Positions 1,468 to 59,728 of a stretch of 64,000 bases of DNA are shown one piece after another. Numbering within the stretch: the stretch's first letter is position 1; the number at the start of each line of letters is the position of its first letter. The notes beneath the pieces are model-generated. The model was not told where the DNA came from. It worked only from the letters and a program-made list of their open reading frames with translations, and ran no database searches. This stretch comes from Candidatus Poribacteria bacterium (GTDB lineage Bacteria > Poribacteria > WGA-4E > WGA-3G): the NCBI GenBank assembly GCA_965242965.1, contig OZ251518.1, positions 4,576,001 to 4,640,000 on the forward strand, in the 5' to 3' direction. Both the position numbers and the translations under genes were made by a program.

Positions 1468-2440
1468 CGAAGGTGTTTCATAAATCGTCCAACGTCGCGG
1501 TGACAGCCCCGCGCTACGGTAACAACTAAGAAATCGCCGCATGGCACGTAGGGCGAGGGCCTGTCCCTCGCCGTGCCCCGGTCTGAGCAGCAAACAGCCG
1601 GGGTCTCCGGGCTGCGGGCGTTTTCCGCACAGGGTGAGAGATCGCGGGGGACAGGCCCCCGCGCTACGGTAATACCTAAGAAATCGGCCCCGTTCACCGT
1701 AGGGCGAGGGCCCTCGGATGCCATACGCGCATCCGAGCGGGTTTCCCGCGCCATACCTAAGGTCTGTAAGACCTTAATGTCTATAGCATCCTGCACCACA
1801 GAGCACCCTAAGGTCTGTAGGACCTTAATGTGCCACTGCTCCCCTCGCTGCCGCTGGATGAAGGACCTAGCGGACCTTGAAAACAGTGGCATGTCTGTTT
1901 TTCTATAGACATGTAGGTCCTAAAGGACCTAAAGAGGCCTCCTTGGCCTCACGAAGGCTTTCGGTATGGAAGCCGCCCTCATCTTGTGAATCCTGTTTCA
2001 GACAGTTAACATCGCGGGGGACAGGCCCCCGCGCTACGGTAAGAAAGCTGATTTGCCTCGCCAAGAGGTCCTAATCTTGGAAATCTTGGAAATCTTGGAA
2101 ATCCTGCTTCAGACGATTAAGATCGCGAGGGACAGATAATTTATCTCGTCTCTGTAGTTCATGATCGCCTGAACTACAGAGCCTGGCGAGCGAGCGATGG
2201 CGAGGGACAGGCCCTCGCCCTACGGTGAGGGGGGGCTTTTCTCCGTCCGTAGCGCGGGTGCCTGTCCCCCGCGATTGTTGGAGTGCGCGTGCACGCACGA
2301 TGGCGAGGGACAGGTTTTCCCACCGCCCTACGATGAAATCGAGACCAGGAGGTCTCTCCTACCGGGACATCGCTTGCATCGAGACCGGGAGGTCTCTCCT
2401 ACCCAGAGGCCATCGAGACCGGAAGGTCTCTCCTACCGGG
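1468..2440. repeat. intergenic mosaic of REP-like hairpins starting with a degenerate MITE left end
   Basis: CGAAGGTGTTTCATAAATC at 1468. Modules: GTAGGGCGAGGGCCTGTCCCTCGCC, CGCGGGGGACAGGCCCCCGCGCTAC, GAGACCAGGAGGTCTCTCCTAC, AGGTCCTAAAGGACCT, and 9-bp AATCTTGGA repeats. Confidence 0.9.
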
Positions 2441-9489: not shown

Positions 9490-9677
9490 TCCAAATTCCC
9501 CGGACTGTTACGGACTATTTCCGTACTTATAACGAGAAGAGGGATGTGGGTTTTCCCTTAGAATGTAAGGGCGGATTTCTATATCTGCACGTTTCCCATG
9601 CAGGCGACAGGCGGATATGGCAATCCGCTCTTACGTTTGGGCGATGGAAAATTAAAACGGACTAGCATTGGTTTAAC

Positions 9678-10249
9678 TGAGGGTGTTTCATAAATTGCTC
9701 AACGTCGCGGTGACATGCCCCCACGAGAGGGTACAAAGAAGGGAAGTGTCGGTAGACACTCCCCAGTCTCAATAATACATCCCGGTAGGAGAGACCTCCC
9801 GGTCTCGATGCTTCAGGCACTCGCAAACGAGAGCGATGAGTCTATCCTACCGGTGGGGTGCGCCCGAGCCCTGTCGTTTCGGGTGCGCCCCACTTGTAGT
9901 TCATGCGCACCTGCACCTGAACTATTTGCAATCAGGCGATTGCAAACGACAGCGGGAGTCTTGATGTTTTCCCGATAGGCGGGACATCCCTGTCCCGATA
10001 CGCACCAAATCGAGACCAGGAGGTCTCTCCTACCAAGACATCGCTCGCATTGAGACTGGGAGGGCGCGCCGGAAAAAGAAAACAGCGCGCGTTGCCATCG
10101 GCCGAGGTCCCGGCACTCGCGACGCGCCGAGGGGTGCCCTCGGCAGGGATTCGTAGAGAAGTTGGGCTGCACTCCGTTCGCTTTTCTATCGGTATTCGCC
10201 TGCCCCCAATGGGCGATAAATACCGAAACGGATTTATGAAACACCCTCA
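9678..10249 (+). mobile_element. MITE-like cassette with REP-hairpin cargo
   Basis: TIRs TGAGGGTGTTTCATAAAT / ATTTATGAAACACCCTCA. Direct repeat TTTAAC at 9672-9677 and 10250-10255. No transposase ORF. Confidence 0.8.
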
Positions 10250-10365
10250 TTTAACTAGGCGTTTTCATATTCTGCAGGATCGGACGCGGAATTTCTCGGT
10301 AACTACAGTCACTTCCTTGGTTGATTTGATATTATCCTTACCACTCAAAAAAACTACATTTTTTC

Positions 10366-10394
10366 TTGCAAAATAATCCAAAATGATATATACT
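10366..10394 (+). promoter_or_regulatory. putative sigma70 promoter of nuoA
   Basis: TTGCAA-17 nt-TATACT. Confidence 0.6.
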
Positions 10395-10426
10395 ATTAAC
10401 TACAAAACGCTTAAGGACAAATCTAC

Positions 10427-10837
10427 ATGCTATTTAACTTCGCAAATGTGCTAATTTTCCTCGGGGTCGGCTGTCTCTTTGTCGTCCTCAACCTGACTAT
10501 CTCTCGCTTGCTACACACGAAGTTGTACTCGGGCGAGAAATATATCCCGTATGAATGCGGCGAAGACCCGGTAGGTGACACGCGCATCAAGTTCAATACG
10601 CGCTTTTACGTCATCGCGCTCATCTTCCTCATCTTTGATGTGGAAACCGTGTTCCTTTTCCCATGGGCAGTAGTTTTCCGAAAAATGGGAATGTTCGCCT
10701 TTTTGGAAATGCTGGTATTCATCGCTATCCTCTTAGTCGGACTCGCCTACGTCTGGGCGAAGGGCGATCTGGAGTGGATCCGCTCAACACAACTAGAGGT
10801 GCAATCCGTTCGGAGGGAAGAAACTCATGGTAATTGA
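10427..10837 (+). CDS. nuoA: NADH-quinone oxidoreductase subunit A
   Basis: PYECGEDP and FLIFDVE..FLFPWA motifs; three TM segments. Confidence 0.96.
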
Positions 10838-11387
10838 TGAAAAACTTGACAAAAACGTCATCGTCACATCCGTTGATGCCGTCGCCAACTGGGCGCGTTC
10901 ATCCGCGCTCTGGCCGATGACGTTCGGACTCGCCTGCTGCGCAATTGAGTTCATGGCGGCGGCGGCTTCTAATTATGACTTGGACCGGTTCGGTGCCGGT
11001 GTGCCGCGCGCGACACCGCGCCAATCCGATCTGATGGTTATCTCAGGCACCGTAACGCTCAAAATGGCGACGCGGATCAAACGCCTCTATGAACAGATGC
11101 CCGAACCGAAATACGTCATCTCAATGGGCAGCTGCGCGACAAGCGGCGGTCCTTATTGGCAACACGGGTATCACGTCCTCAAAGGGGTCGACCGGATTAT
11201 ACCCGTTGACGTTTACGTGCCGGGCTGTCCGCCGCGTCCGGAGGCACTCATCGAAGGGTTGCTCAAGTTGCAGGAGAAGATTCGGACGCAGACCGTGGCG
11301 AAGCGCGCCCACGTGCCGTTCCTGAGAAGACTCTTTACTAAAACCGAGTGGTATCAGCATGAAGGCACAGAAGCGGCCGCGGAGTAA
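10827..11387 (+). CDS. nuoB: NADH-quinone oxidoreductase subunit B
   Basis: [19 protein letters not shown] and VPGCPPRPE motifs. Confidence 0.97.
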
Positions 11388-11562
11388 TACCAAATGGCGG
11401 ATATCCTCTCGCATCTGTAGGGGGCACTCGCCCGATTGTGCCTTGTTTGAAATCAGGCGATTGCAAACTACAGAACCGAGGAACCCCTGTTTGAAATCAG
11501 GCGATTTCAAACTGCAGTGCCGAGGAACCCATATCCGTTCAGTTATGGAGAGAAGAAAACAC

Positions 11563-12048
11563 GTGAAACCCGAAGAAATTCATGAAATGCTATCCGAGCA
11601 GTTCGGCGAGGCAGTGCTCGGTTTTGACGCGGAACTCGCCGGCGACCCGAGTATTCGCATCGCCGCCGCTTCCATCGCCGATGTATGCGCCTATCTCGCC
11701 GAAACCGAGACGCTGGCGTTTGACTCTTTGATGTCGCTCAGCGGCGTAGATATCAACGCGCGCGATGAGGAATTCACCGTAGTCTATCACCTCTACTCGA
11801 TGCAACATCGGCAGAAGGTAGTCATCAAAGCGGTGGTGCCGAAAGAGGAACCGCACTTGCCAACCGTTGAGCATCTCTGGAAAACAGCGAATTGGCACGA
11901 GCGCGAGATTTATGACCTTTACGGTATCCACTTTGAGGGGCACAGCGATCTCCGTCGCATCTTACTCCCCGATGATTGGGAGGGGTATCCGTTGCGGAAG
12001 GATTACAAGGAGCCGGAATTCTATCGCGGGATGCGCGTGCCGTATTAA
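11563..12048 (+). CDS. nuoC: NADH-quinone oxidoreductase subunit C
   Basis: ANWHEREIYDLYGI.FEGH.DLRRILLP.DW.GYPLRKDY motif. GTG start at 11563; the ORF-track extension upstream runs through REP sequence. Confidence 0.95.
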   Translation: MKPEEIHEMLSEQFGEAVLGFDAELAGDPSIRIAAASIADVCAYLAETETLAFDSLMSLSGVDINARDEEFTVVYHLYSMQHRQKVVIKAVVPKEEPHLPTVEHLWKTANWHEREIYDLYGIHFEGHSDLRRILLPDDWEGYPLRKDYKEPEFYRGMRVPY

Positions 12049-12099
12049 CTTCGTGATTTTGGCGCGCTTTTACAGCGCGCCTGCCGGTTTTTTGATAAC

Positions 12100-12966
12100 A
12101 TGCGCCGCAATTACCGCCTCCTCATCTTGCTATTCCCTGTCATCTTTTGGCTCATCTGCTTCTTTCTCATCCCGCTCCTGTCCGTATTCGCCTATAGTTT
12201 TATAGAACGCGGGACTTACGGCGGCGTGCAGTGGAACTTCACACTGGAGAACTATCAGCGGCTGTTTGACGGGCTCTACCTCGGCATCTTGTGGCGTTCA
12301 GTCTCCACGGCGATAGTGGCGACAGTTCTCTGTCTGATACTCGGCTATCCGTTCGCGTATTATCTGGCGCGGTATCAACCGAAACGGCGAAACGTGCTGT
12401 TATTGCTTGTCGTTGTCCCGTTTTGGACCAATTTTCTCATCCGCACCTACGCATGGATACTGATTTTACGGACAGAAGGCATTTTAAACAGCCTGCTGGC
12501 ATTTCTCGTCCCGAACTTCCAACCGTTGGAACTGCTCAACACGCCGATAGCCGTGCAGCTCGGGCTCGTCTACGGTTACCTGCCGTTTATGATTTTGCCG
12601 CTCTACGCCTCTCTGGAGCAGTTGGACCTGGGGTTAATGGAGGCGGCTCAAGATTTAGGTGCCTCACCGCGCCGCACCTTCTGGCATGTTACCGTACCGC
12701 TCAGCCTCCCCGGTATCCTCGCTGGCTCCATGTTGGTTTTCATCCCTACCGTCGGCGCGTTTATCACCCCAGATTTACTCGGCGGCGGGAAGGTGAGTTA
12801 CATCGGGAACGTCGTCGAACGGCAATTCAAATCGGCGCGAGATTGGCCGTTCGGTTCCGCGCTATCATTCATGCTGATGTGCATCGTGCTGGTGGGGACG
12901 GTGCTCTATTTCCGGGCACTTGGAAACCGAGATGAGGCGGTTGCGCCTACCGGAGAGGGACGATGA
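12100..12966 (+). CDS. potB: spermidine/putrescine-type ABC transporter permease
   Basis: PFWTNFLIRTYAW, the EAAQDLGA (EAA) motif and DWPFGSALS. Confidence 0.85.
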   Translation: MRRNYRLLILLFPVIFWLICFFLIPLLSVFAYSFIERGTYGGVQWNFTLENYQRLFDGLYLGILWRSVSTAIVATVLCLILGYPFAYYLARYQPKRRNVLLLLVVVPFWTNFLIRTYAWILILRTEGILNSLLAFLVPNFQPLELLNTPIAVQLGLVYGYLPFMILPLYASLEQLDLGLMEAAQDLGASPRRTFWHVTVPLSLPGILAGSMLVFIPTVGAFITPDLLGGGKVSYIGNVVERQFKSARDWPFGSALSFMLMCIVLVGTVLYFRALGNRDEAVAPTGEGR

Positions 12967-13736
12967 AACGCCTCCTTGAAATCAACATCTTCCTCGTTTT
13001 CCTCTTCCTCTACGTTCCGATTTTGGCAGTCGTCGCGTTTTCGTTTAACAGCGGTGAACAGACAGCGGTATGGCAAGGGTTCACATTTGAGTGGTATGCG
13101 GCGTTGTTTGAAGACGCGGACTTATGGCGCGCCTGCAGAAATAGTTTGATGGTAGCGGGTGCCGCGACGCTCATCGCCACCGTTATTGGGACGGCCACCG
13201 CGCTCGCTATTGAACGTTACCGATTTCGGTTTCGCGCAGCGTTAGTGCGATGTCTCTACCTCCCGATTATCATCCCCGACATCGTGCTGGCGATTGCATT
13301 GCTGTCCTTTTACGTGCAGACGCGCATTCCGCTCGGATTAACGTCCCTTATCATCGCGCACGGCGTTTTCAATATCGCCTACGTTACCATCGTCGTCAGG
13401 GCACGCTTGCAAGGTTACGATAACAGCGTTGAGGACGCGGCGTTGGACTTGGGTGCCACCGAATGGCAGACGTTTTGGCGGATTACACTGCCGCTCATCG
13501 CGCCGGGGATTATCGGCGGCGCATTGCTAGCGTTCACGCTTTCGATTGACGACTTCGTCATCACCTTCTTTACGGCAGGTGTCGGGTGGACAACGCTTTC
13601 GGTGCATATCTATTCGCTGCTCAAATTCGGCATCACGCCAAAAATCAACGCTATTTCAACGATGCTCCTCGTCAACTCGATCGTTTTTATCCTATTATTC
13701 TTGCGATTCAGAGAGAAAGACGCGCGAAACGGGTAG
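12963..13736 (+). CDS. potC: spermidine/putrescine-type ABC transporter permease
   Basis: FLYVPI, FSFNS, EDAALDLGA, FTLSIDDFVITFF and PKINAIST motifs. Confidence 0.85.
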   Translation: MKRLLEINIFLVFLFLYVPILAVVAFSFNSGEQTAVWQGFTFEWYAALFEDADLWRACRNSLMVAGAATLIATVIGTATALAIERYRFRFRAALVRCLYLPIIIPDIVLAIALLSFYVQTRIPLGLTSLIIAHGVFNIAYVTIVVRARLQGYDNSVEDAALDLGATEWQTFWRITLPLIAPGIIGGALLAFTLSIDDFVITFFTAGVGWTTLSVHIYSLLKFGITPKINAISTMLLVNSIVFILLFLRFREKDARNG

Positions 13737-13920
13737 AAAAAACACCGTAGCGCGGGGGGCCTCGGATGCCACACGCGCATCCGAGAGGGTTTCCCCCGCA
13801 ATCGCGAAAGACGCGCGAAACGGTTAGGCAAAAAACTCACCGTAGCGCGGGGGCCCTCGGATGCCACACGCGCATCCGAGAGGGTTTCCCCCGCGAGCGC
13901 GAAAGACGCGCGAAACGGTT
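13715..13920. repeat. three copies of the potC 3'-end 18-mer alternating with long REP hairpins
   Basis: GAAAGACGCGCGAAACGG at 13715, 13806 and 13901, separated by GTAGCGCGGGGG..CTCGGATGCCACACGCGCATCCGAG..CCCCCGC hairpins. Confidence 0.88.
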
Positions 13921-13954
13921 ACGAAAAAAACGCTATCTGTGGTATCATATATCC

Positions 13955-15055
13955 ATGACGACATTTTCCCGGACGTGGATAGAAATAGACTTGCAGGCAA
14001 TTGTGGCGAACGCAACTGCAATCAAATCGCACACCGGCACTCGCCTCATCGCCGTTATCAAGGCGGATGCTTACGGACACGGCGCGGTCCGCGTCGCACA
14101 GGCACTGCACGAAATCGCCGATATGTTCGCCATTGCCACGGTGGCAGAAGGAATTGAGCTGCGCAATGCCGGCATTCGCAAGCCGATTTTCGTCTTGTTC
14201 AGTCCTCTCCCAGAATTGGCGGCGGAGATTGTCGCACATCAATTGATTCCGGCGATTGACAATTGGCAGTTGGCGCAGCGGTTAAACGAAATTGAACCGG
14301 TAGGCGCGCTTTCAAATCACGCTGTGCATGTTGACATTAACACCGGCATGCACCGAAGTGGTGTCCATTGGACAGAGGCGAAAGCGTTTTTGGACAGATT
14401 GAAGACGCTAAACCAACTTGAAATTAAAGGCATTTTTACACATTTCGCAACGGCTGACGAGGCGGACAAAAGTTACGCCTACCTGCAATTGGAGCGGTTC
14501 TCCACAGTGTATTGTAGGCGCGCGCGCCCAGGCGCGATAATGGTTCACGCGGCGAACAGTGCAGCAACGTTAACAATACCAGAAGCGCGTTTTGATGCCG
14601 TTCGTCCCGGCTTAAGTCTTTACGGTATCTATCCATCAACAGAAAAACCGATTCCGTTGCAGCCGGCCCTCACGTGGAAAGCGCGCGTCGGATGGGTAGG
14701 CTGGATTGAGGCAGGCGAAGGCGTGAGTTATGGGTTGACGTATCGCGCCGCTAACCGCACGCGCATCGCGACATTGCAAGTAGGCTACGGGGACGGATAT
14801 CCGCGCGCGCTGTCTAACCGCGCCCACGTCTTAATCAACGGCAAACGCCGTCCGATTATCGGACGCATTTGCATGGACGTGACGCTCATCCAACTCAAAC
14901 CTTCAGATGACGTTTCCATCGGTGACGAAGCCGTGCTAATCGGAAAACAGGGAGACGCTGAAATCGGCATTGATGAGGTTGCCGCCCGCGCAGATACGAT
15001 TTCATATCACATTCTCACACAGATAAGCAGACGCGTTGCACGAAACTACGTGTAA
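13955..15055 (+). CDS. alr: alanine racemase
   Basis: AVIKADAYGHG (PLP lysine), TGMHRSG, GYGDGYPR and GRICMD motifs; start at MTTFSRT. Confidence 0.96.
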   Translation: MTTFSRTWIEIDLQAIVANATAIKSHTGTRLIAVIKADAYGHGAVRVAQALHEIADMFAIATVAEGIELRNAGIRKPIFVLFSPLPELAAEIVAHQLIPAIDNWQLAQRLNEIEPVGALSNHAVHVDINTGMHRSGVHWTEAKAFLDRLKTLNQLEIKGIFTHFATADEADKSYAYLQLERFSTVYCRRARPGAIMVHAANSAATLTIPEARFDAVRPGLSLYGIYPSTEKPIPLQPALTWKARVGWVGWIEAGEGVSYGLTYRAANRTRIATLQVGYGDGYPRALSNRAHVLINGKRRPIIGRICMDVTLIQLKPSDDVSIGDEAVLIGKQGDAEIGIDEVAARADTISYHILTQISRRVARNYV

Positions 15056-15105
15056 GGGAGAATGGCTATAGCCTCCCTTCAATACGTCCTTACCTATCAC
15101 AAAAA

Positions 15106-16032
15106 ATGGTAATCACACTCAATAATCTATCTGTCTCTTATGGCACTCGCCCGGCGTTGGACTCACTCTCCCTGGAAGTAAAGGGAGGTGCCATCGGCCT
15201 CCTCGGTCCGAACGGTGCCGGCAAAAGCACGCTGCTGAAGACGCTGCTCGGCTTTGTTTCTCCAACCGAGGGAAGCGCGTCTATCTTCGGCATGGATGTC
15301 CAAACGCACACTTTGGACATCCGCCAGCAAATCGGCTATATGCCCGAAGACGAATGCTTAATTCCGGGGATGAGTGCCGTGCAATTGGTGGCTTACGCTG
15401 GAGAATTATGCGGTATGCCATCACGAGATGCCATGCAACGCGCCCACGAAGTCCTCTATTACGTCGGCGTTGATGAAGAACGCTACCGTCCAGTCGGCGA
15501 ATACTCAACAGGGATGAAACAGCGGGTGAAACTTGCGCAGGCACTCGTGCATGATGCCAAGTTGCTGTTCCTCGATGAACCCACCAACGGCATGGATACG
15601 AGTGGGCGCGAGGAGATGATCGCGCTTGTGAAAGACATTTCCGCCGACAAAGGTATTAATACCATTTTGTCATCGCACTTATTGCCAGATGTGGAAACGG
15701 CGTGTGAGGAGGTTATCGCGCTGCACGATGGACGCGTCGTCGTCCACGGCAATATTGAGGCACTGAAGAAACAACACTACCGCGCGTTCGATCTGAAGAT
15801 TGTCGGTAATAGCGAAACTTACGTGCGCGCGTTGGAACGCAATCAATACCTAGCTGAACTCAAACCGGGGGGCAGACTCCGAGTCACCACCCGTGAAGAC
15901 GCACGGACAGATGAACCAGACCCGAGATGCTTTTTCAGATTGGCATTAGAGCACGGTGTCCAACTACGTCAACTCCGCGAGGTGAAGCATTCGCTTGAGG
16001 ATATCTTCGCCGAGGCGATGGGTGTAGAGTGA
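15106..16032 (+). CDS. ABC transporter ATP-binding protein (ABC-2 type)
   Basis: GPNGAGKST, YSTGMKQR, LLFLDEPT and SSH motifs. Confidence 0.93.
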   Translation: MVITLNNLSVSYGTRPALDSLSLEVKGGAIGLLGPNGAGKSTLLKTLLGFVSPTEGSASIFGMDVQTHTLDIRQQIGYMPEDECLIPGMSAVQLVAYAGELCGMPSRDAMQRAHEVLYYVGVDEERYRPVGEYSTGMKQRVKLAQALVHDAKLLFLDEPTNGMDTSGREEMIALVKDISADKGINTILSSHLLPDVETACEEVIALHDGRVVVHGNIEALKKQHYRAFDLKIVGNSETYVRALERNQYLAELKPGGRLRVTTREDARTDEPDPRCFFRLALEHGVQLRQLREVKHSLEDIFAEAMGVE

Positions 16033-17171
16033 TTTTGAAAGTCTTGCTCATTGTTCTCATCGCTCTTTACCTATGCGCCGCTGGTTTTCCCAGGCGCGCC
16101 GCCGCTGACGAGAAACTCCGCATCGTTGGCATGGGCGGCACCCGCATCGCGACGCGCGCAGCGGACGCGGGTATCTTTGGCAACCCGGCATCGTTAGTTC
16201 ACGTCCAAAACCATCATCTCGCCTTCGGCATTGCCACCGAAAATCTGCGCTGGGGAGAACTCCCCAAACAGAAACGCGAACAACTCGTCGCCGAAGCGGG
16301 CATCGACGTTTACCCGACAACCTACTACTCGCACGCTTTTGGGAAGTGGGGGATTAGCATCGGCTACGCGGCGACGTTCACCAATTTTGCGAATTTCACG
16401 TTTGATGCGACTCAAGCCGAATATGATAGGAACAACCGCCGGTTTTCTGCACAGACAGATTTAAACACAGAATACGCTTTGTTCCGTGAAGGACGGTGGG
16501 TGCTATGCCTCGGACGCGAGATTGGAAAAACGCTGGCAGGGGCACGGCTCAAGTGGATAACGCAAAATGTGCGGCGCGGCACGCTGGTGTCTACCCTAGA
16601 TTTAGCGGCGCGCCACGGGCCAGACGTAGACACTCGCGCGCCGGAACAATTCATTCCGGCAATCGTTGAGGCGTTGCAATTCGGGGACAGGGTTCGCGAT
16701 ATTCTCCACGAAAACCAGCCCGAAATGGATAGCACAGCCGGCAGGTTGGAATTTGATGTCGGGTTTCAGCGCGATGTCCAAGTCCCACGTCTCAAACCGA
16801 TACAGGTAGGCGTGCTTTTTGAAAATCTCCTGCGGGCAGATTTAGTTGAACCGCTGCCGTTCAGGCTCGGCATTGGAATCGCATATCAACCTTTGGAATC
16901 GATAACTCTCGCCGCTGATGTCTCGCGCACGACAGGAGAAAGCGGGGTGGACTGGGCAATCGGCGCGGAATGCCACACCGGAGAATGGAAAACCAATTTC
17001 GCGGCGGCTCTCCGCATTGGCGCGGGCAGGGTTGCAGTAGCGAACCATTTTTCTATCGGCATCGCTTTGCGGCTTGGCACGCTTTGGACAGAATATACTT
17101 TGCGCAGTCCGTTCACAAGTATTCCGATTACAGAGGCGCATCACTTGTTCGCATTTACGTTGCATTGGTAG
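16029..17171 (+). CDS. putative outer-membrane beta-barrel protein (PorV/FadL-like N-terminus)
   Basis: Signal peptide, GMGG....A......NPA.L motif, alternating beta strands, terminal aromatic residue. Confidence 0.6.
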   Translation: MILKVLLIVLIALYLCAAGFPRRAAADEKLRIVGMGGTRIATRAADAGIFGNPASLVHVQNHHLAFGIATENLRWGELPKQKREQLVAEAGIDVYPTTYYSHAFGKWGISIGYAATFTNFANFTFDATQAEYDRNNRRFSAQTDLNTEYALFREGRWVLCLGREIGKTLAGARLKWITQNVRRGTLVSTLDLAARHGPDVDTRAPEQFIPAIVEALQFGDRVRDILHENQPEMDSTAGRLEFDVGFQRDVQVPRLKPIQVGVLFENLLRADLVEPLPFRLGIGIAYQPLESITLAADVSRTTGESGVDWAIGAECHTGEWKTNFAAALRIGAGRVAVANHFSIGIALRLGTLWTEYTLRSPFTSIPITEAHHLFAFTLHW

Positions 17172-17185
17172 ATATTTTCCGTTGG

Positions 17186-17560
17186 CTGTAGGGCGAGGGC
17201 CTGTCCCTCGCCAGGCTGAAACCGCACCCAATACCGTAGGGCGAGGGCCTGTCCCTCGCCATGCTGCGATCGCGGGGGAAACCGCTCGGATGCGCGTTTG
17301 GCATCCGAGGGCCCCCGCGCTACGGTAACTTGACGCACTCGCCATGCATGAGTAACCATTCTCCGGTGTCCGTAGGGCGAGGGCCTGTCCCTCGCCGTGC
17401 CACGATCGCGGGGGACAGGCCCCCGCGCTACGGTAACCGAGACGAACGCGGGGGACAGGCCCCCGCGCTACGGTAACTTGACAATCGCAGGGACAGGCCC
17501 CCGCGCTACGGTAACCGAGACGCTCGCGGGGGACAGGCCCCCGCGCTACGGTAACTTGAT
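17186..17560. repeat. tandem REP hairpin array
   Basis: Repeated GCGGGGGACAGGCCCCCGCGCTACGGTAAC units at ~39 bp period, plus GTAGGGCGAGGGCCTGTCCCTCGCC copies. Confidence 0.9.
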
Positions 17561-17573
17561 GGAGGAAACAGAC

Positions 17574-18887
17574 ATGAAACACAACATGCTCGCAGTAGGC
17601 ACTGCCCAAGTAGACATCACGCCGGATTATCCGATCCGACTCAGCGGCTACGGAAGCCGACGCACTGAATCCGAAGGTATCATTCAACGGATTTGGGCGA
17701 AAGCACTCGCCATCGGCAGTGAAACAGAAGAACCTGTCGTCGTGGTAACCGTGGAAAACTGCGGTTTGCCGGATGAACTTACCGAGGCAATCGCGCACCG
17801 TGTCAAACAGAAAACGGGGCTCTCCCGCGCGCATTTTGTCGTCTGTTTTACACATACGCACAGCGCGCCGTGCCTTACCAACGCAGCACCTTTCATTTTT
17901 AGTTCAGATATTCCGCCGGAACAGCAGGAGAAGATCGAACGGTATACTGGACAACTCGGTGAGTGGCTGGAGACGGTGGCACTGGAAGCACTCGCTAATC
18001 GCGAACCTTGTCACGTCGCATGGAATGTCGGTGAATTGGACTTCGCCAAAAATCGGCGAACAGAGGGCGGCCCGGTCGACCACGGTTTACCTATGTTACA
18101 CGTCACCGATGCAGACGGTGCCTTGCGCGCCGTGTGGGCAAGTTACGCATGCCACTGCACGACATTAGCAGGTTCGGATAACCACATTTGCGGTGATTGG
18201 GCAGGCTATGCGCAGGAGGCGATTCAGAAGGCAAACCCCGGTGCAACGGCATTAATCTCTATCGGTTGCGGCGCGGACGCGAACCCTGCATCGCGGATGA
18301 TGCCGATGCCAGAAGGACAACAGGAGGTTTTTCAGACGCGTCTGGCCTATGCGAAAAAGCACGGAGAAGCACTCGCGCAGGAAGTCCAACGCCTCCTCGC
18401 CGCCGATGCCAAACCGCTATCCAACACGCCGACAGGTTCGTTTGAACGGATAAACCTGCCGTTTGATACACTGCCGACGCTTGAGGAGTGGAAGGCACGC
18501 GTTGCTGAGGGAGGTGCCGTTGGCTATCATGCGCAAAAGCATCTCGAACGGTTACAGCGAGGGGAACCGTTGCAAACGGAGCTCTCTTACCCTGTCCAGA
18601 CGTGGCATTTCGGTGACGAACTCGCCATCGTCTTCCTTGCCAGCGAGGTGGTGGTTGACTATTCGCTTCGGTTGAAACGTGAATTCGACGCGGCGCGGCT
18701 GTGGGTAGGCGCGTATGCCAACGCCTTTCCCGGCTATATTCCATCGGAGCGCGTCCTCGCCGAGGGTGGCTATGAAGGCGGCGACGCGATGCTCTACTTC
18801 GGTCCGCCGACTCGCTTCGCACCGGGCGTTGAGCAGTTAGTGATTGATGCAGTGCATCGGCTGCTGCCTCCGGCATTTTTGCAGTAG
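17574..18887 (+). CDS. neutral/alkaline ceramidase N-terminal-domain family hydrolase
   Basis: DITP..P..LSGYG.R, THTHSAP, YACHCT and GYEG motifs; GGAGG RBS before MKHN. Confidence 0.85.
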   Translation: MKHNMLAVGTAQVDITPDYPIRLSGYGSRRTESEGIIQRIWAKALAIGSETEEPVVVVTVENCGLPDELTEAIAHRVKQKTGLSRAHFVVCFTHTHSAPCLTNAAPFIFSSDIPPEQQEKIERYTGQLGEWLETVALEALANREPCHVAWNVGELDFAKNRRTEGGPVDHGLPMLHVTDADGALRAVWASYACHCTTLAGSDNHICGDWAGYAQEAIQKANPGATALISIGCGADANPASRMMPMPEGQQEVFQTRLAYAKKHGEALAQEVQRLLAADAKPLSNTPTGSFERINLPFDTLPTLEEWKARVAEGGAVGYHAQKHLERLQRGEPLQTELSYPVQTWHFGDELAIVFLASEVVVDYSLRLKREFDAARLWVGAYANAFPGYIPSERVLAEGGYEGGDAMLYFGPPTRFAPGVEQLVIDAVHRLLPPAFLQ

Positions 18888-18916
18888 AGAGGCGTAGAAT
18901 CTCAAGGAGTTATATC

Positions 18917-19207
18917 ATGACCGTGGATGACATTCAAAAAACTATCGCCGAAGCGAAGGACAACATCCGCCGTGATTACAAGGCAGAGGTGAAAGCCATT
19001 TTCGGTTCGTATGCCCGCGGTGACAACCACGCCGACAGTGATTTGGATCTCCTCGTAGATTTCTATCAGGGTGCCAGTCTGTTTGAGGTTGTCAGGTTGG
19101 AACGCTTTTTAGAGGACAAGTTCGGTTGCAAAGTGGACGTAGTCTCGCGCCGTGCTCTCCGCAAAGAACTTCGTGACGCTGTCTTCAAGGAGATGATCCC
19201 GCTATGA
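18917..19207 (+). CDS. minimal nucleotidyltransferase (MNT, antitoxin of HEPN-MNT systems)
   Basis: FGSYARGD...DSDLDLLV and KVDVV motifs; AAGGAG RBS. Confidence 0.9.
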   Translation: MTVDDIQKTIAEAKDNIRRDYKAEVKAIFGSYARGDNHADSDLDLLVDFYQGASLFEVVRLERFLEDKFGCKVDVVSRRALRKELRDAVFKEMIPL

Positions 19208-19212
19208 GAAAT

Positions 19213-19598
19213 TGAGGGTGTTTCATAATTCGCTCAACGTGGCGGGGGACAGGCCCCCGCGCTACGGGAAAAAAAACGCCGCCCCTTCACGTAGGGCGAG
19301 GGCCTGTCCCTCGCCATGCCTCGCGCCGGAAAAAACGTCTCTTAGGTCCGTAGGACCTTAATGTCTATAGCCCTCGGCGACCGAAGAGATTTAAGGACCT
19401 AAAGGCCCTTGAAAACAGGACGACATGTTTTTCTATAGACATGTAGGTCCTAAAGGACCTAAGACAGCATCGTGACGATGGAGATCGCGGGGGACAGGCC
19501 CCCGCGCTACGGGAATGCATCGAGACCAGGAGGTCTCTCCTACCGGGAGGTATGGAGACCGGGTGGTTTCTCCTAGGGCGATTTATGAAACACCCTCA
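19213..19598 (+). mobile_element. MITE-like cassette with REP cargo (flanks not duplicated)
   Basis: TGAGGGTGTTTCATAA...TTATGAAACACCCTCA; flanks AGAAAT and CTTTCC do not match. Confidence 0.75.
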
Positions 19599-22500
19599 CT
19601 TTCCAGAACACCCGGCAGCGGAATCCCGCGAACGGAAAGCGCGCGCTGCTCGCGTGCCAAGGCCTCCTTCTCTGCCACTTCACTCCCTGGCAACTGATGC
19701 TTTTCACGCTCGGCGGCGAGGTCTGCAGGATTTTGCTTTGTCCCCGTGATGCTCGGTTCGGCGCACAGCATCTCCCGCAGCCGCTGCATCCCCCGATGCA
19801 CCTCGGCATCGGTGATGCCTAACACCTCCGCTAAAAACCGTGCATCCAACACATGTCTCCACGCGTCGGTGGCGCACTCGTTATAGGGCTTCATCCGATA
19901 CGCCTTCAAGTCGGCGAACACGCGTTCGGCAGCTGCCAACTGTTCCTCCGAGAGTTGATAGACATCTAGTGTGAGGAGGGGCCCTAGGTTCGTCAGAACC
20001 ATTTTCCCCCGCCCGGGTTGCTGTTTACCACACTGCATCCAGTGGCAAAGCAATCCCAAAGTCGAGTTAGTCCAAAGCGTCCATGCCGCCTCGTAGCGTG
20101 AATCGCTGAATACGATATTTGTTAAGGAAGAGACACCTATTGAGGGCTCCTCTGTCCATGATGCGATTACCGAATTCGCTGTAAAACCGAGCAGTGTATG
20201 GTAATGCGTGCGGCTGTTCCGGTTAAGAATCCGCCGAGCCTTTTCAGCATTGTGAGTTTTGATTTTGGCTTTGTAATCGGGCTCAGTCACCATCGCCCGC
20301 TGCAAAGGTGCATTTACCACCCACAATGCATCGTAGCCGTCTTGCGTTCCGGATGAGCGTTCGCGCAGTTCAAACGCGCCACGTTTGCCTTTGTCTTTGA
20401 TATCGCGATGACTATAGCCGACTTGAGCAACTTCGCGTAACTGGCACACCGGAACATCGTTTCCATCCATCATCTGTGGCAGGTGTAACTTACCTTGACG
20501 GAGATGATATGCTGTCTGCACCAGTGACATTGAGGCTACGCGAGAAATGCTCCACTCGTTTTCGTCAATGGGACACTCCAACATTTGTCCCATGCAGACA
20601 TCTCCAACCATCAGTTCATCGCTTCCATGCGGTGCATCTTCCAACCGCCGTATGACAGGTTGACGACGGATATTCTCTGCCAGTGTCTGCGCTGACAGCA
20701 GACTCTCCGGACGCTTGGAGAGACAAACGAATTTCGCTCGTCCCGTGTTCTCCGCTACGCCTTTCGTCGCTACGACGATACACTCTGCCATGCTCGTATC
20801 GGCAGAGAACGCGCTATCATATCCACTCGCCCCGGCGATTGTTAACACCAGCACGTCGTGATATTCCTCCGCAAGCATACGACGCACTTTGTTCATTGCT
20901 GCTCCTGTTAAAATCGTTGATAGGAGGATGAAACCCATCACACCGCCATTTTTCAATTTCCGGTCTGCCATATCGACGAAATATGAACCGAGTCCGTTAA
21001 TGCCGTTTGCTACGCGAATATCCTTTTGTGCCAGAGCCTCTTGCATCGCTCCTTTTACAGCATCGGAATACTCATGGCTCTGGAAATGGGTTTTACTTGA
21101 CTCGGTAGCATTGTCTGCACCAGGGCGTGCAAACGGCGGATTGATAATCACGATATCCATTTCTCCATCGGGGAATTCACGTTTCAGTTCCGCCGTAGCA
21201 CTGTTCTCGCCGCCAACCTGTTCACCTTCCGTTTCCATCGGATCGAACAGCAATTGGCTATCTAATAATTCTAACGCACCGGTTTTGTAGGTGTTGTCTG
21301 CTTGGAGCCCGTAAGGTGCGGTTATCACCCGCGTCGCGCCGAGTGTCACTTCGGGATGCGCGCTCGCCATCGCCGCGAAGGTGAGATGCGTGCAATGCGA
21401 GTAAATGTCTGTCCCCGCGAGGTTATTCTCTAGCATGTGACGGTGGATAGTCACGCTGCTCTTGCCGGTTTTCTGCTCATAGAGGCGTTGGATGCGTTTA
21501 TAGACACCGTTCAGCAACGCGCCTGTCCCACAAGCGTAATCTGCCACTTTTGGGAGCGCGCCATCGTCGGGTAGGTTTGGACAGACGAGTGCAGAAAGGA
21601 GGGCGGCACTTGTCGGCAGCGTGTAGTTGGCTTTCACATATTTCCTGTCGATGACAAGTTTCTGGAAGACTTCCCCGGCGAGTTCGTGGAGTTGCGGCAG
21701 GTGGGAGGCTACGAGTGTATCGGCGGCTTCCCAGAGTTTTTCCAGCACCTTGTCCGCCATCGCTTCATCGTAGAGGAACGCCTCGCGCACCATCCGTTCT
21801 GCATCCTTGAAGATAGGCTGGTAGTTGACAGCGAGGATGGCTTCCCAGTCGGCGACAACCTCTGTCCACTGCATCGGGTGGACTTTGTAGTAGGACAAAG
21901 GTCGGACGGTTTCCATTCCGGCTTTCCCGGCGAGGGCATTTTGGAAGACGAAGGCATCAGTGAGTATCAGGCATGCCATGCGAGAGGTTTGTTCGCCCGG
22001 TGCCTGCTCAAGGATGTCGTGCAGTTTTTGCCCGATGGCCGGGATATTTGCGATGGATGCATCGAGCCACTTGGCGGCGACGTGGATGTCGTATTCCATC
22101 TGTGCGGCGGCCGCGTCAAGTCGCTGACTTGGCACCGCGCCGACTTGCAGTGCAGTAGCGATATCGGCGAGGGTGCCGCGGGCGTAACCCTCAGGTGGAA
22201 ATTGATACGGTTCACCCGCGGTTTCGCCGATGAGGAGATACTCCAAGTCAGCGGCTTGTTTCAGCAACGCTTGGATAGCTGCCCCTCGTTTGTTGCGAAA
22301 ACGCGAGGGATACCGAATCACCATAGCGGCGCGTAAGGTGTCGCTCACCCCGACGAAGTCGGGAGATAACTTTCTGCCCAGATACCGTGAGCATACTTGC
22401 TTCACGCCATCGGCGGCCGCGTCTGCCCATTTTGCTTCGATAGCCACGGTTTGGTGTCCGGGACGTGTCACCATCACATCGGGTTGGCGTTGACTCCCTT

Positions 22501-22600
22501 CGAGGGGCTGTTGTTGTTCTTCAAACTCCCAGCCGGGGCTCATATAGCGGAGTAAGCGCACCAGTTGACTGGTGACAGGATTTTCTTGTTGCCTGGGCAT
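19583..22600 (-). CDS. type IIG-like restriction-modification fusion (nuclease + N6-adenine MTase + TRD)
   Basis: PD...EAK (QPDVMV...IEAK), DYACGTG and NPPF motifs. ATG at 22600 follows a GGAG RBS; the stop codon lies within the MITE TIR. Confidence 0.8.
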   Translation of the reverse strand: MPRQQENPVTSQLVRLLRYMSPGWEFEEQQQPLEGSQRQPDVMVTRPGHQTVAIEAKWADAAADGVKQVCSRYLGRKLSPDFVGVSDTLRAAMVIRYPSRFRNKRGAAIQALLKQAADLEYLLIGETAGEPYQFPPEGYARGTLADIATALQVGAVPSQRLDAAAAQMEYDIHVAAKWLDASIANIPAIGQKLHDILEQAPGEQTSRMACLILTDAFVFQNALAGKAGMETVRPLSYYKVHPMQWTEVVADWEAILAVNYQPIFKDAERMVREAFLYDEAMADKVLEKLWEAADTLVASHLPQLHELAGEVFQKLVIDRKYVKANYTLPTSAALLSALVCPNLPDDGALPKVADYACGTGALLNGVYKRIQRLYEQKTGKSSVTIHRHMLENNLAGTDIYSHCTHLTFAAMASAHPEVTLGATRVITAPYGLQADNTYKTGALELLDSQLLFDPMETEGEQVGGENSATAELKREFPDGEMDIVIINPPFARPGADNATESSKTHFQSHEYSDAVKGAMQEALAQKDIRVANGINGLGSYFVDMADRKLKNGGVMGFILLSTILTGAAMNKVRRMLAEEYHDVLVLTIAGASGYDSAFSADTSMAECIVVATKGVAENTGRAKFVCLSKRPESLLSAQTLAENIRRQPVIRRLEDAPHGSDELMVGDVCMGQMLECPIDENEWSISRVASMSLVQTAYHLRQGKLHLPQMMDGNDVPVCQLREVAQVGYSHRDIKDKGKRGAFELRERSSGTQDGYDALWVVNAPLQRAMVTEPDYKAKIKTHNAEKARRILNRNSRTHYHTLLGFTANSVIASWTEEPSIGVSSLTNIVFSDSRYEAAWTLWTNSTLGLLCHWMQCGKQQPGRGKMVLTNLGPLLTLDVYQLSEEQLAAAERVFADLKAYRMKPYNECATDAWRHVLDARFLAEVLGITDAEVHRGMQRLREMLCAEPSITGTKQNPADLAAEREKHQLPGSEVAEKEALAREQRALSVRGIPLPGVLESEGVS

Positions 22601-22601
22601 C

Positions 22602-23489: not shown

Positions 23490-23513
23490 AACATCCTCCT
23501 CGCGCGCTTCTCA

Positions 23514-24425: not shown

Positions 24426-24542
24426 TATAGGAGTTATCTCCCGAATATTGTTTTTTATTATGATAAAGGCATTCGGATTTTTCGTCAAGTCGTTTTTTTT
24501 GCTTTGTAAGGGAGGATTTCTATATCCTGTCTGCCCTTTACA

Positions 24543-24907
24543 TGAGGGTGTTTCATAAATGGCTCAACGTCGCGGTGACATACCCCGCGCTACGGTGAAA
24601 AAAACGCCTCCCTTTCACGTAGGGCGAGGGTCTGTCCCTCGCCATGCGTTTGGCTGTCGGATCGCATCACCTCTGTAGGTCAGGATCGCCTGATCCTGAC
24701 CTGTTTGTGATCAGGCGATCACAAACTACAGAGGGAAACACACATCGTGACGATGAACTCGCGGGAGAAACCCGCTCGGATGCGCGTGTGGCATCCGAGG
24801 GCCCCCGCGCTACGGGATAATCGAGACCAGAGGTCTCTCCTACTGAAGAAGACATCAAGACCGGGAGGTCTCTCCTACCGAACGCATCGAAATATGAAAC
24901 ACCCTCA
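24543..24907 (+). mobile_element. MITE-like cassette with REP cargo
   Basis: TIRs TGAGGGTGTTTCATA / TATGAAACACCCTCA; direct repeat TTTACA at 24537-24542 and 24908-24913. Confidence 0.82.
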
Positions 24908-24908
24908 T

Positions 24909-25895: not shown

Positions 25896-25943
25896 GATAG
25901 TGAGTTTCGGGATGATGGAACAGGAACAACTGCTAGATTTCGG

Positions 25944-26201
25944 TTATCGGATGCGCCGCATGTATTCGTCATGTTTGCCAACCCAATTCCAGACGAAAGC
26001 ATCTTCCCTTTCAAACGCAATAGCTCGATATCCCTTGGTAATGCGAATAGCCCAAAGCCTTTCCCCAACTTTCTTGAAATTAAGGGAAGGATGTTTCGGA
26101 TTTTTCCGCAGCAGTTCAAATTTCTGAGGGATACGTTTTTGGATATCCCGGGGAAGCTCCTCAGCAAATCCCCAGAAATCTTCATCAGGAATATGCTCCA
26201 T
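25944..26201 (-). CDS. RelE/ParE-superfamily toxin, copy 3
   Basis: FW....LP.DIQ...KFELL..NPKHPSL.FKKVG..W..RI..GYRA...W.WVG.HDEY; ATG lies 1 nt after the antitoxin stop. Confidence 0.85.
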   Translation of the reverse strand: MEHIPDEDFWGFAEELPRDIQKRIPQKFELLRKNPKHPSLNFKKVGERLWAIRITKGYRAIAFEREDAFVWNWVGKHDEYMRRIR

Positions 26202-26202
26202 A

Positions 26203-26532: not shown

Positions 26533-26547
26533 CTGTGCCTCCTGATG

Positions 26548-27178: not shown

Positions 27179-27640
27179 CGAGGGTGTTTCATAACTCGAT
27201 GGAACCTCCCGGTAGGAGAGACATCCCGGTCTCGATGCAATAGGACGGCGCGCCCCCCGGGGGCGCGCCGGCAGAAAGCCCCCTTCATCGTAGGGCGAGG
27301 GCCTGTCCCTCGCCATCGTCCGCGCAATCCAACGCGCGCAGGGGACAGGCCCCCGCACTACGAAAAAAACGTCTCTTAGGTCCTTTAGGACCTTAATGTC
27401 TATAGCACGCGCGCCTGCGAAGAATACTAAGGTCCTTTAGGTCCTTAATAGTCTTTGCCAGGGCCGCGCGTTTTTTATGAAGGACCTAAAGGCCCTTGAA
27501 AACGGAACGACGCGTTTTTCTATAGAAAGGACCTAAAACGCCACCTTTTGACGATGGCCAATGCGGGGGACAGGCCCCCGCGCTACAGATTGTGCAGCGA
27601 AACCTCGCGAGGGACAGGCCCTCGCGCTACGGAACGCGGG
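27179..27640. repeat. REP mosaic with a single MITE-type end
   Basis: CGAGGGTGTTTCATAA at 27179, then GTAG hairpins and AGGTCC/AGGACCT modules; no second TIR seen. Confidence 0.85.
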
Positions 27641-27650
27641 TGCTTTTTTG

Positions 27651-38421: not shown

Positions 38422-38936
38422 TGAGGGTGTTTCATAAATCGCTCAACGTCGTGGTGCCAGCCCCCCGCGTTACGATAAAAAACGCCACCTCCTCATCGTA
38501 GGGCGAGGGCCTGTCCCTCGCCATCGCTCGCGTCATCCAACGCTCGCGGGGGACAGGCCCCCGCGCTACGGTGAAAAAACGCCTCCCCTCACCGTAGGGC
38601 GAGGGCCTGTCCCTCGCCATCGTTCTCGCGCCAGGCCCTGTAGGGCAGGATCGCCTGATCCTGACCCGTTTGTGATCAGGCGATCACAAACTACAGAAGA
38701 GGAAACACACATCATGACGATGGAGCTCGCGGGGGACAGGCCCCCGCGCTACGGGAAAAAAACGCCTGTCCCTCACCGTAGGGCGAGGGCCCTCGGATGC
38801 CACACGCGCAGGCGAGCGGGTTCCCCTCGCGAGCTAGCGTCATCCAACGCTCGCGGGGGACAGGCCCCGCGCTACGGGACAATCGAGACCAGGAGGTCTC
38901 TCCTACGGGAAGGCATCGAAATATGAAACACCCTCA
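38422..38936 (+). mobile_element. MITE-like cassette with REP cargo
   Basis: TIRs TGAGGGTGTTTCATA / TATGAAACACCCTCA; direct repeat CTAAAT at 38416-38421 and 38937-38942. Confidence 0.82.
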
Positions 38937-49333: not shown

Positions 49334-50485
49334 CTATCGGTTCCTCCGCCGCAGATTAGATTTATCGTAATACGCCTCGACCTTTTTAGCAATTTCAAGG
49401 AGTTGTGCTTCCGATATATCGCCGCTCGGCTCCAAGTCTGTCAACAGCCGCTGCAGTTCATCGGTATTGATACCGGAACGCCGCGTGGCGATTTCCTCAA
49501 CGAATGCGTCGGTTTTTAACTTGATGTTGACGTTCCAACGCGCCCCGAGGTCAGCCCGGAATCCATCACGGAGTTGACCCAAAACCTCGCGCCTTGTGTT
49601 ACCCTTTTGGTAAAGTGCTGTCATAGCGAGGACGTACTCGGAACTGAGCCGCCGATGTGTTTCTCGTGCTTCCAACGGCTTGCCAAACCGTCGCCCGCGC
49701 AGCATCAAAAACACAAACAGAGCCATGCCGAGATAGAGGATGCCTAACCCTCCCGGCGTTTGAAACAGCAGTGCGAGCAGCGGATCCGACGAATGAACCG
49801 CGCCGGTGCCATAATATCGGTATTCCGCAAGCCCAATGCGCGCTTTGCGCGGGATGGTCGACATCAAGTTATAGAGAAACGTCGCGTTCTCCGGAAACGT
49901 CAATCCCGACGCGCCGAAAATATAGGGGCACGACATGAAAAAGACGCGGCCCTCACCTTGCCGAAAGGTAATCACCGCGGATTCTGTCCCGCGTCCATAG
50001 AGCGGCACCACGTCCGCATCACTTCCTATCTCGGCGATGAAAAAATCCGTTCGCGCGCGAATTCTCGCTACCGGCCGCGCAGGAAAGAGTGGTTCTCTCG
50101 GCATCCGTTTTGCATCGATGAGTTCGCTTTGTGCCACGCGCAACTCAAATCCATAAGCCGCGAAGAGGGAGTTAAGTGCGATGTCTTCCCCAGCGGCAAT
50201 CAAGGTGCCGCCGCCTGCAACGAAATCACGAATCTTCTGTATTTCCTCTTCGGGGAGAGCCCTTCTGATTCGCCGTAGGAACAGCACATCAAATCTGTCT
50301 AATTGTGCGGGAGTGACATCGGATATTTCTGTCACGCGAAATTTCAGCGCGCGCAAAATGTTGTTCAGCGTGCTGCCACGCCGGTCCAAACCATCGCACG
50401 CCGCCAGCACGAAACAGATGGATACGATTAAGGCAATTTTCAGGAAGCGAGACTGCAAAGACTGATGTTTATGCGGGTGTTTCAT
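49334..50485 (-). CDS. DUF4350 domain membrane/lipoprotein (MoxR cluster)
   Basis: [14 protein letters not shown], a TM segment followed by RGRRFG, and EYV.A...LY; cluster context; start uncertain. Confidence 0.78.
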
Positions 50486-50589
50486 AACTCGTTGTTGCAA
50501 AAAAAACGATTCCGTTTCTCCGGTAGGAGAGCCCTCCTGGTCTCGATTCCGTTTAGACTCCCGGTCTTGATTCCGTCAAATGGCGTTTC

Positions 50590-55342: not shown

Positions 55343-55714
55343 TAAGTGAGTTTCATATATCAATGGCTTCCCCGTAGGAGAGCCCTCCTGGTCTCGATTT
55401 TTCCAGTCGGTGCGCCCTCCCGGTCTCGATGCATGCCATGTTCCCGGTAGGAGAGCCCTCCTGGTCTCGATGTGGTTTGTATCGGGACAAGGATGTCCCT
55501 CCTACCGGAAGGCATCGGGCCCACCTTTGTAGTTCGGGAGCGCCCGCTCCCGAACGGGTCAGGAGCAGGCGCTCCTGCCCTACAGGGGTGAGGCGGTCTG
55601 ACAGCCAAACGCATGGCGAGGGACAGGCCCTCGCCCTACGTGAAAGGGAGGCGTTTTTTTTCGTAGCGCGGGGGCCTGTCACCGCGATGTCAAGCGATTT
55701 AGGAAACACCCTCA
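55343..55714 (-). mobile_element. degenerate MITE-like cassette, inverted orientation
   Basis: Right end TTAGGAAACACCCTCA; left end TAAGTGAGTTTCATA (12/15 match to the TIR); flanks TTGAAA and TTTAAA (5/6 match). Confidence 0.65.
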
Positions 55715-59427: not shown

Positions 59428-59433
59428 CAGAGC

Positions 59434-59728
59434 CGGTAGGCGAGCCCTCCCGGTCTCGATTTCTTCCTAGTAGGAGAGACCTCCTGGTCTCGATGCAATC
59501 GGGCGGCGCGCCTACCGGGGCAGCGGCGGCAGAAAACCCTCCTTCATCGTAGGGCGAGGGCCTGTCCCTCGCCATGCGTTTGGCTGGCAGACCTCCTCCC
59601 CTCTGTAGGTCAGGATCGCCTGATCCTGACCCGTTCGGGAGCGGGCGCTCCCGAACTACAGAGGTAGGCCCGATGCGCGCCCCGCAAGGGGGGGATAAAT
59701 ACCGAAACGGAGTTATGAAACACCCGTA
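59434..59728. repeat. REP mosaic ending in a degenerate MITE end
   Basis: GTAG hairpins; TTATGAAACACCCGTA at 59713-59728. Confidence 0.85.

Follow-up and report, generated by a model that had tools for sequence, protein, structure and literature searches.

The repeat cassettes analysed here very probably form one very large IS-derived MITE family whose REP interiors were remodelled after the partner IS died in the genome that carries them, G000 (5.70 Mb, two contigs, 54% G+C). We propose that the DDE transposase (DDE_Tnp_1_3) of an unnamed 1.1-kb IS moved the family in trans; this enzyme would need only 14–18-nt ends, insert at A-N-TTAA-N-T and duplicate 8 or 9 bp. The interior of the 266-bp founder MITE is a small array of the genus's own GTAG REP hairpins, so that every transposition would also have copied REPs. 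Following a burst that, among the genomes searched, took place in the G000 lineage only, the IS would have died and left a relic, and the REP arrays in the frames kept changing, as REP arrays do everywhere in G000. Modules were gained at a few hot spots (REP loops, inter-module linkers and a T-run), others were lost and ends were deleted, and such losses would account for one-ended arrays and for pairs without a duplication. Plausible agents of this remodelling are the only intact RAYT of the genome, homologous recombination and slippage between REPs, acting alone or together.

The window, the whole stretch of DNA analysed, is 64 kb long (G000:C1:4576001-4640000). The 15-nt end TGAGGGTGTTTCATA has 14 matches in it at up to three mismatches, against a mean of 1.08 and a maximum of 5 in 100 shuffles. 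A first-pass annotation of this DNA had described four pairs of inverted ends, a degenerate fifth element and solo ends at 1468, 27179, 50472 and 59713. All of these were recovered, the last solo end being placed at 59714-59728 (Table 1), and the four pairs have perfect terminal inverted repeats of 14–15 nt. All five elements carry at one end the AATCGCTCAACG-type subterminal sequence noticed on reading the sequence, and module annotation agrees with the earlier statement that the content and order of REP modules differ in each. Flanking duplications had also been reported, with a length of 6–7 bp. The repeats exist, but counted from GAGGG they are 8–9 bp long, the outer bases having been missed; in this register the flanks of cassette 4 match at 8/8 positions, those of cassettes 1 and 3 at 7/8 and those of cassette 5 at 7/9, and cassette 2 has no duplication.

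Table 1. Cassettes and unpaired ends in the 64-kb window (window coordinates).
Feature	Position	Strand	Description
Cassette 1, 572 bp	9678..10249	.	Left end A-type, right end B-type; flank 8-mers GTTTAACT / ATTTAACT
Cassette 2, 386 bp	19213..19598	.	Both termini perfect; no target duplication (GAGAAATT vs ACTTTCCA)
Cassette 3, 365 bp	24543..24907	.	Left end A-type, right end C-type; flank 8-mers CTTTACAT / ATTTACAT
Cassette 4, 515 bp	38422..38936	.	Exact 8-bp duplication ACTAAATT at 38415-38422 and 38936-38943
Cassette 5, 372 bp	55343..55714	.	Left terminus degenerate (3 mismatches), right end A-type; flanks GTTTGAAAT / ATTTAAAAT, 7/9
One-ended REP array	27179..27650	+	Terminus (1 mismatch), then R3, R1, R2 and R5 modules into unique DNA; no second terminus
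Short one-ended element	50472..50575	+	Terminus (1 mismatch) and R3-type hairpins
One-ended REP array	59433..59728	-	Closes with a B-type terminus (2 mismatches; 59714-59728)
Solo terminus	1468..1482	+	2 mismatches

All five cassettes of the window lie in intergenic spacers. The cassettes are small and contain no transposase gene, and the open reading frames that cross them are read-throughs of repeat DNA.

Across the genome, the 14-nt core GAGGGTGTTTCATA has approximately 1,026 matches at up to two mismatches (530 exact, 370 with one mismatch and 126 with two), comprising 300 plus/minus neighbour pairs less than 1.2 kb apart, whose lengths run continuously from 69 to 1,129 bp, and 426 solo ends. 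The target consensus directly outside GAGGG is the palindromic A-N-TTAA-N-T. The tabulation of all inverted pairs and their duplications, suggested in the first-pass annotation, gave a direct flank repeat in 167 of the 300 pairs, against 5.8 by shuffle, when registers of 7 to 14 bp were allowed. Counted from GAGGG...CCCTC, the duplication is 8 bp long in 99 pairs, 9 bp in 44 and of other length in 24; the overall range, 7 to 14 bp, is wider than is usual for a single transposase. A genome-wide lack of duplications, which had been named as evidence against transposition, is therefore not what was observed for the 167 pairs, but the other 133 do lack one at these registers. The TTAA core being palindromic, the flank matches could conceivably have been an extension of the terminal inverted repeats. 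This was rejected: among flank 8-mers compared in direct orientation, 64 are exact and 36 differ by one base, in inverted orientation the corresponding numbers are 1 and 1, and shuffled partners give 0.6 and 4.1. An autonomous copy was sought among 38 inverted pairs of 0.9–6 kb and none was accepted, as these pairs have no recurrent length and their open reading frames look, by eye, like ordinary genes.

Other genera of the family contain an intact, autonomous IS bearing these ends. Among 41 relatives searched, G022, a member of the same family but of another genus, has six inverted pairs of the exact motif, each with a spacing of precisely 1,109 bp, and G024 has one pair. These 1,109-bp elements are insertion sequences with 18-nt ends, TGAGGGTGTTTCATAAAT, identical to the cassette ends, and contain one open reading frame of 332–353 aa. 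Its product matches the Pfam models DDE_Tnp_1_3 (39.1 bits, cut-off 27) and DDE_Tnp_1 (26.7 bits, cut-off 23). The best NCBIfam model is IS982 (NF033520), with a score of 54.9 bits that is below the cut-off of 130, and consequently the element is not filed as IS982. It appears to be an unnamed IS, distantly IS982-like: members of the IS982 family share with it a length of approximately 1.1 kb, a single open reading frame and the DDE_Tnp_1_3 domain. The family's target duplications reach 9 bp, comparable with the 8–9 bp observed here, but its usual end tip differs from the ends of the partner IS, which start with (T)GAGGG. All five IS copies examined have 8-bp duplications (9 bp in one) at AGATAATT-like sites, the same footprint as that of the cassettes. 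The earlier reading of the inverted ends and duplications as traces of DDE transposition is well supported by this same-ended autonomous IS and by the dead relic of it in G000 described below.

The transposase has 1,512 homologues at E ≤1e-5. The best 120 of them are mostly about 332 aa long (273–342 aa) and 73–94% identical, and the only source name among the matches listed is 'hypothetical protein' of Candidatus Poribacteria. The end itself is present in 61 of 112 genomes of the family at 1–38 copies, often as pairs about 1.1 kb apart, compared with 450 copies in G000, which makes the MITE burst specific to G000 among the genomes searched. In one member of another genus, an inverted pair of the same ends is only 651 bp apart (G069:C1:2926887-2927537); this could represent either an IS with an internal deletion or a MITE of independent origin.

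The cargo consists of REP elements, for which families were obtained by de novo k-mer assembly and islands were defined by frequent 12-mers. Several hairpin families are tagged with GTAG or CTAC, and the consensus sequences of R1, R2, R3 and R4 all carry the tag, so that the first-pass description of the cargo as GTAG REPs stands. R1 (GGCGAGGGACAGGCCCTCGCC) and R2 (CGCGGGGGACAGGCCCCCGCG) exceed 2,000 copies each, R3 has approximately 1,600, and R4 doublets, R5, R6 and others follow, the range being from hundreds to about 2,600 copies per type in G000. There are 2,867 repeat islands, which together make up 650 kb (11% of the genome). Of these, 2,160 lack a terminus, 430 are bordered by one on a single side and 190 on both sides. 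Although about 43% of the island DNA is terminus-associated, the 57% in terminus-free islands holds 69% of the R1 and R2 copies and 56% of the R3 copies, indicating that REPs spread mainly on their own and that the MITE added a further share. The 2,160 terminus-free islands fit the description of BIMEs; the cassettes do not, having DDE-type ends and duplications. Arrays outside cassettes vary between strains too. R1 occurs throughout the genus, with 1,779 copies in G000, 466 in G001 and 158 in G002; among the other 38 relatives there was a single match in one genome and none in the remainder.

G000 has one intact RAYT gene (156 aa; REP_Tyr_transpos, 120.6 bits, cut-off 80), bordered on both sides by GTAG-TTCGGGAGCGCC-type hairpins, a type also found in the doublet of the founder MITE but only one of at least six REP types. 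A second match to Y1_Tnp was not accepted as a RAYT; it is a decayed IS200/IS605 TnpA beside a TnpB. In this element (G000:C1:3123891-3127127, approximately positions 267-1821 therein), TnpA is broken by two TGA stops and the adjoining TnpB is intact (408 aa; guided_TnpB, 195 bits).

Some further REP-related structures were seen. A hairpin of about 29 nt with the core CTCGGATGCGCGTGTGGCATCCGAG occurs in 531 copies in the genome, in the window for example at 24756-24800 and 38786-38830. In 530 of the 531 copies an R1- or R2-type stem arm lies within 16 nt, which means that this hairpin is nested, in a fixed setting, within another REP's loop (REP-in-REP). In G001, half a REP doublet (G001:C48, approximately 3290-3400 in L024 coordinates) is bordered by a 27-bp direct repeat of host sequence, a duplication unusually long for REP insertion. 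Another region of the same genome (G001:C182, 2015-2365 in L025 coordinates) holds a composite element that recurs in G000, where it has over 80 matches at 78–90% identity; it is some 320 bp long and runs from an AT-richer R5 block through R2, R3 and R3 to a C-type terminus.

An all-against-all comparison of the 300 cassettes assigned 68 of them to 12 clusters. Members of a cluster have one architecture over their full length and lie at unrelated sites; the remaining 232 cassettes are unique. The initial picture of fixed ends around variable REP cargo thus holds for the 232, but overlooks a core family with a fixed interior. The largest cluster consists of 25 copies of about 266 bp and the next of 13 copies of about 296 bp. 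The founder order is terminus, B module, REP doublet (CTGTAG...CTACAG), linker, R1, T-run, R2 and terminus, and the 296-bp subfamilies are the founder with the hairpin of about 29 nt nested in the R1 or R2 loop. The founder and the partner IS have only the ends in common. The B module is 97% terminus-associated and is for this reason regarded as a true part of the MITE. More generally, the 14-nt end is joined to various subterminal modules (A, B, C, D, E and F), of which A pairs with every other. The founder cargo was amplified as a unit with its ends.

Empty sites were sought in the congeners G001 and G002. Removal of cassette 4 together with one copy of ACTAAATT reproduces the G002 sequence with one mismatch and that of G001 with a few, so both genomes have a clean empty site with a single copy of the target. 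Cassette 3 is missing from the orthologous spacer of both genomes, the spacer having diverged there, and for cassette 1 synteny in both is limited to the right flank. Two 20-kb stretches rich in cassettes were compared as well: of 11 G000 cassettes examined there, not one was seen at the syntenic position in G001 or G002. In five cases the flanks align and the cassette is absent, and six are unalignable; several of these comparisons fail because the flanking DNA of the congeners differs by 8–20%. Two of the five alignable sites are clean single-copy empty sites in G001, one of them revealing a 10-bp duplication with one mismatch that the 8/9-bp rule had missed, and in the other three the spacers have diverged or there is extra DNA beside one end. 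The reverse case was also seen: a 198-bp cassette of G001 lies in a 10-bp duplication, AGAT[G/A]AGACT, of which G000, being empty, has a single copy. The retention of one target copy at orthologous empty sites, which the first-pass annotation had proposed to look for, was therefore seen for cassette 4, for two further G000 cassettes and for one site filled in G001 and empty in G000.

G002 was rejected as an empty-site reference for the whole window, its synteny being confined to window positions 10.3–27 kb. The block spans 10346-27055, and its two borders fall at cassette 1 and at the one-ended array (27179); this hints that rearrangements broke the DNA at repeat islands.

These sites also bear on the possibility that IS or MITE ends landed around or inside REP islands that already existed, the cargo being merely bracketed host DNA. 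We regard this as highly improbable. REP islands do far outnumber the ends, and C-type ends join the terminus to what appears to be a truncated R3 unit, as such an origin would have it. The clean empty sites examined, however, contain neither termini nor a REP array; the outer flanks of the cassettes are AT-rich unique DNA that fits the IS target and not REPs; and 68 cassettes have whole common architectures at unrelated sites.

Cassettes occupying the same site in two strains reveal what happened to the cargo later. G001 has seven ends at up to two mismatches in the three stretches examined and five exact 15-nt ends genome-wide, and two of the four elements seen are at the same site as in G000. 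Comparison of cargo at the same site across strains, as the first-pass annotation had recommended, gave different contents at both. At the first shared site, the duplication AGTTAATT is present in both strains, with one mismatch in the right copy of G000, and the cargo is 863 bp long in G001 vs about 480 bp in G000, the two being collinear only in the right 110 bp or so. At the second, the right terminus and its flank are the same; G001 has a two-ended 263-bp cassette, but G000 has a one-ended array of different modules in which the left end and its flank copy are lost. Cassette interiors have thus clearly been remodelled after insertion. A separate peculiarity of the first site is that in G000 (C1:3012257-3012270) the left terminus has, in place of its outer 11–12 nt, a copy of the 12 nt following the right-hand duplication, resulting in a 20-bp direct repeat around the cassette; this looks like a repair or template-switch scar.

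Alignment of 68 A-B cassettes to the founder gave 75 gains and 9 losses of at least 15 nt. The gains are made of REP modules and concentrate in the loops of R1 and R2, the linker preceding R1, the B module and the T-run. Loop insertions were inherited in amplified subfamilies (the nested hairpin, at two positions), and the number of independent events is consequently below 75. A comparison of the ages of REPs and termini through their mismatch spectra was uninformative because of palindromic variants.

The inverted pairs without a duplication require a separate explanation. Among A-B pairs, 29 have an 8–9-bp duplication, 29 have none and 10 have a longer or offset flank repeat. Such duplications occur in none of the five A-A pairs and in one of the eight B-C pairs, pairings that do not normally occur. 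Across the 300 pairs, neither length nor end type explains which lack a duplication. The flanks of these pairs still match the target consensus, somewhat more weakly. Age or degeneration was discarded as the cause, since the share hardly shifts with terminus quality; the class of termini with two mismatches has duplications at chance level. Sibling-type flank matches among 738 orphan ends are not in excess (218 vs 287 in the control; a 9-mer version of this control is invalid, because the consensus shifts register), which indicates that simple flank swapping between distant copies is not the cause. Flanks common to orphan ends are not parts of a longer repeat either, the DNA further out being unrelated. 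We infer that one of the original flanks disappeared, either in a deletion next to the cassette or when adjacent insertions fused through their REP modules; the one-ended array at the second shared site is an example of such loss. This agrees with PMC11708052, excerpts of which give recombination and adjacent deletion as frequent causes of missing duplications.

How the interiors changed allows more than one answer. Within the same frame of a MITE of an extinct IS, they could vary by homologous recombination, gene conversion and replication slippage between REPs present in thousands of similar copies, the RAYT taking no part, and we consider this a serious possibility, although not the favoured one. 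Gains are often blocks of several modules (R1+R2, R5+R5+R5), as expected from unequal exchange or duplication, the abnormal A-A and B-C pairings look like fusions, the swapping of a G000 terminus for a 12-nt copy of its own right flank is repair-like, and recombination and adjacent deletion are the processes named for missing duplications in the excerpts of PMC11708052. On the other hand, the insertion points are sharply clustered, and the precise placement of a 29-nt hairpin in the loops of two REPs looks site-directed; the RAYT gene has been kept intact, and reciprocal flank partners are not in excess. A coupling of the two kinds of element by accident is more doubtful. A DDE MITE that had captured REPs would have seeded hundreds of islands, and its frames would have become breeding grounds where the RAYT inserted modules at particular positions, the 29-nt REP-in-REP included. 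If this were true, the placement of that hairpin in REP loops would represent an undescribed insertion mode for REP-type elements.

The reading that we prefer, a MITE frame left behind by a dead IS and remodelled afterwards, draws on the state of the partner in G000. Its sole trace there is a relic at approximately C1:2371300-2371746, with a perfect end, the IS leader and two open reading frame fragments about 45% identical, with a stop, but no second end. A profile search of G000, whose completeness is 94.7%, gave no match to PF13612 (DDE_Tnp_1_3) or PF01609 (DDE_Tnp_1). For the 87 cassettes that have a near-full-length partner among the other copies, the median of the best pairwise identities is 88.5% and the highest is 96%, and no pair of cassette copies in G000 is at least 98% identical. 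On this sequence record the partner IS is in all likelihood extinct in G000 and the cassette frames would now be fossils. With no transposase able to move the cassettes in G000, their mobilisation is deduced from the relatives.

The first-pass annotation had envisaged a two-tier system, in which a DDE transposase disperses cassettes whose interiors are edited by REP activity. Two elements of that proposal hold, namely that cargo was carried with the founders and that it was remodelled in place. As a working, co-adapted system, in which the transposase keeps dispersing cassettes and the RAYT keeps editing their interiors, it is improbable for G000. Ends with duplications do exist, the RAYT is intact, REPs lie within the founder subfamilies and 43% of the repeat-island DNA is attached to termini. 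Against these facts stand the reduction of the DDE_Tnp_1 or DDE_Tnp_1_3 gene to a relic, the lack of near-identical copies, the location of most REPs outside cassettes, in arrays that also vary between strains, and the absence from our data of any link between the two enzymes.

REPs and MITEs are usually treated as separate classes, each with an enzyme of its own; in G000 one seems to have ridden inside the other, and a DDE transposase would thereby be able to multiply substrates of an HUH transposase. The hundreds of dated frames offer a natural record of the growth, shrinkage and erosion of REP arrays, and the MITE burst left 11% of a 5.7-Mb genome as small repeats. For genome annotation, this history would account for many one-ended repeat islands and for end pairs without a target duplication. 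The case further adds an IS family, as yet without a name, that occurs widely in a lineage of sponge symbionts.

The frame has much in common with IS-derived MITEs of bacteria such as Correia/NEMIS, RUP, Nezha, Chunjie and MITEAba12 (PMC3733652, PMC10969869). According to the excerpts of these papers, such elements have short terminal inverted repeats and target duplications, are non-coding and intergenic, are mobilised in trans by the transposase of a same-ended IS and form subfamilies with size variants. The G000 cassettes differ from them in several ways: GTAG REP hairpins from a number of families fill the whole interior, roughly three in four copies carry cargo found in no other copy, the ends number about 1,000 in 5.7 Mb, and the partner IS has died out in the genome. 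The excerpts of the MITE review PMC10969869 do not mention RAYT or cargo, and the literature searched contained no occurrence of the cassette terminus sequence.

The cargo resembles REPs, BIMEs and REPINs with their RAYTs as described in the excerpts of PMC2817692, PMC3116915 and PMC3733652: GC-rich GTAG/CTAC hairpins in thousands of extragenic copies, mosaic arrays of several motifs and a RAYT gene flanked by its own REPs. BIMEs and REPINs, as described there, have neither DDE-type inverted ends nor 8–9-bp duplications, whereas the G000 cassettes have both; with about 43% of the island DNA attached to DDE ends, part of the REP load of this genome would have been spread by a DDE enzyme.

Among the systems covered by the excerpted literature, BrickBuilt, a MITE of Porphyromonas gingivalis (PMC4596501), appears to be the nearest analogue of a fixed frame with a variable interior, having fixed leader and tail ends around a repeat that varies in length. 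That repeat is a minisatellite of 23-nt tandem units, and BrickBuilt has 19 copies; in G000 the interiors consist of independently mobile REP families and the copies number in the hundreds. A physical association between IS and REP is also known for ISPpu9 (PMC12288879) and for IS481 in P. fluorescens SBW25 (PMC11708052), which, in the parts excerpted, insert into REPs. In G000 the arrangement is reversed, the REPs being enclosed by the frame and insertion being into AT-rich unique DNA. REP arrays enclosed in DDE-type MITEs were not described in the portions of the literature on MITEs, REP/RAYT and Poribacteria repeats that were covered. In those sources we likewise found no account of what would be new here, a DDE MITE whose entire interior is a REP array and which, after multiplying to hundreds of copies, diversified at its insertion sites. 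The frame is that of an ordinary IS-derived MITE and the cargo is an ordinary GTAG REP/BIME system with its RAYT; it is their combination that sets the cassettes of G000 apart.
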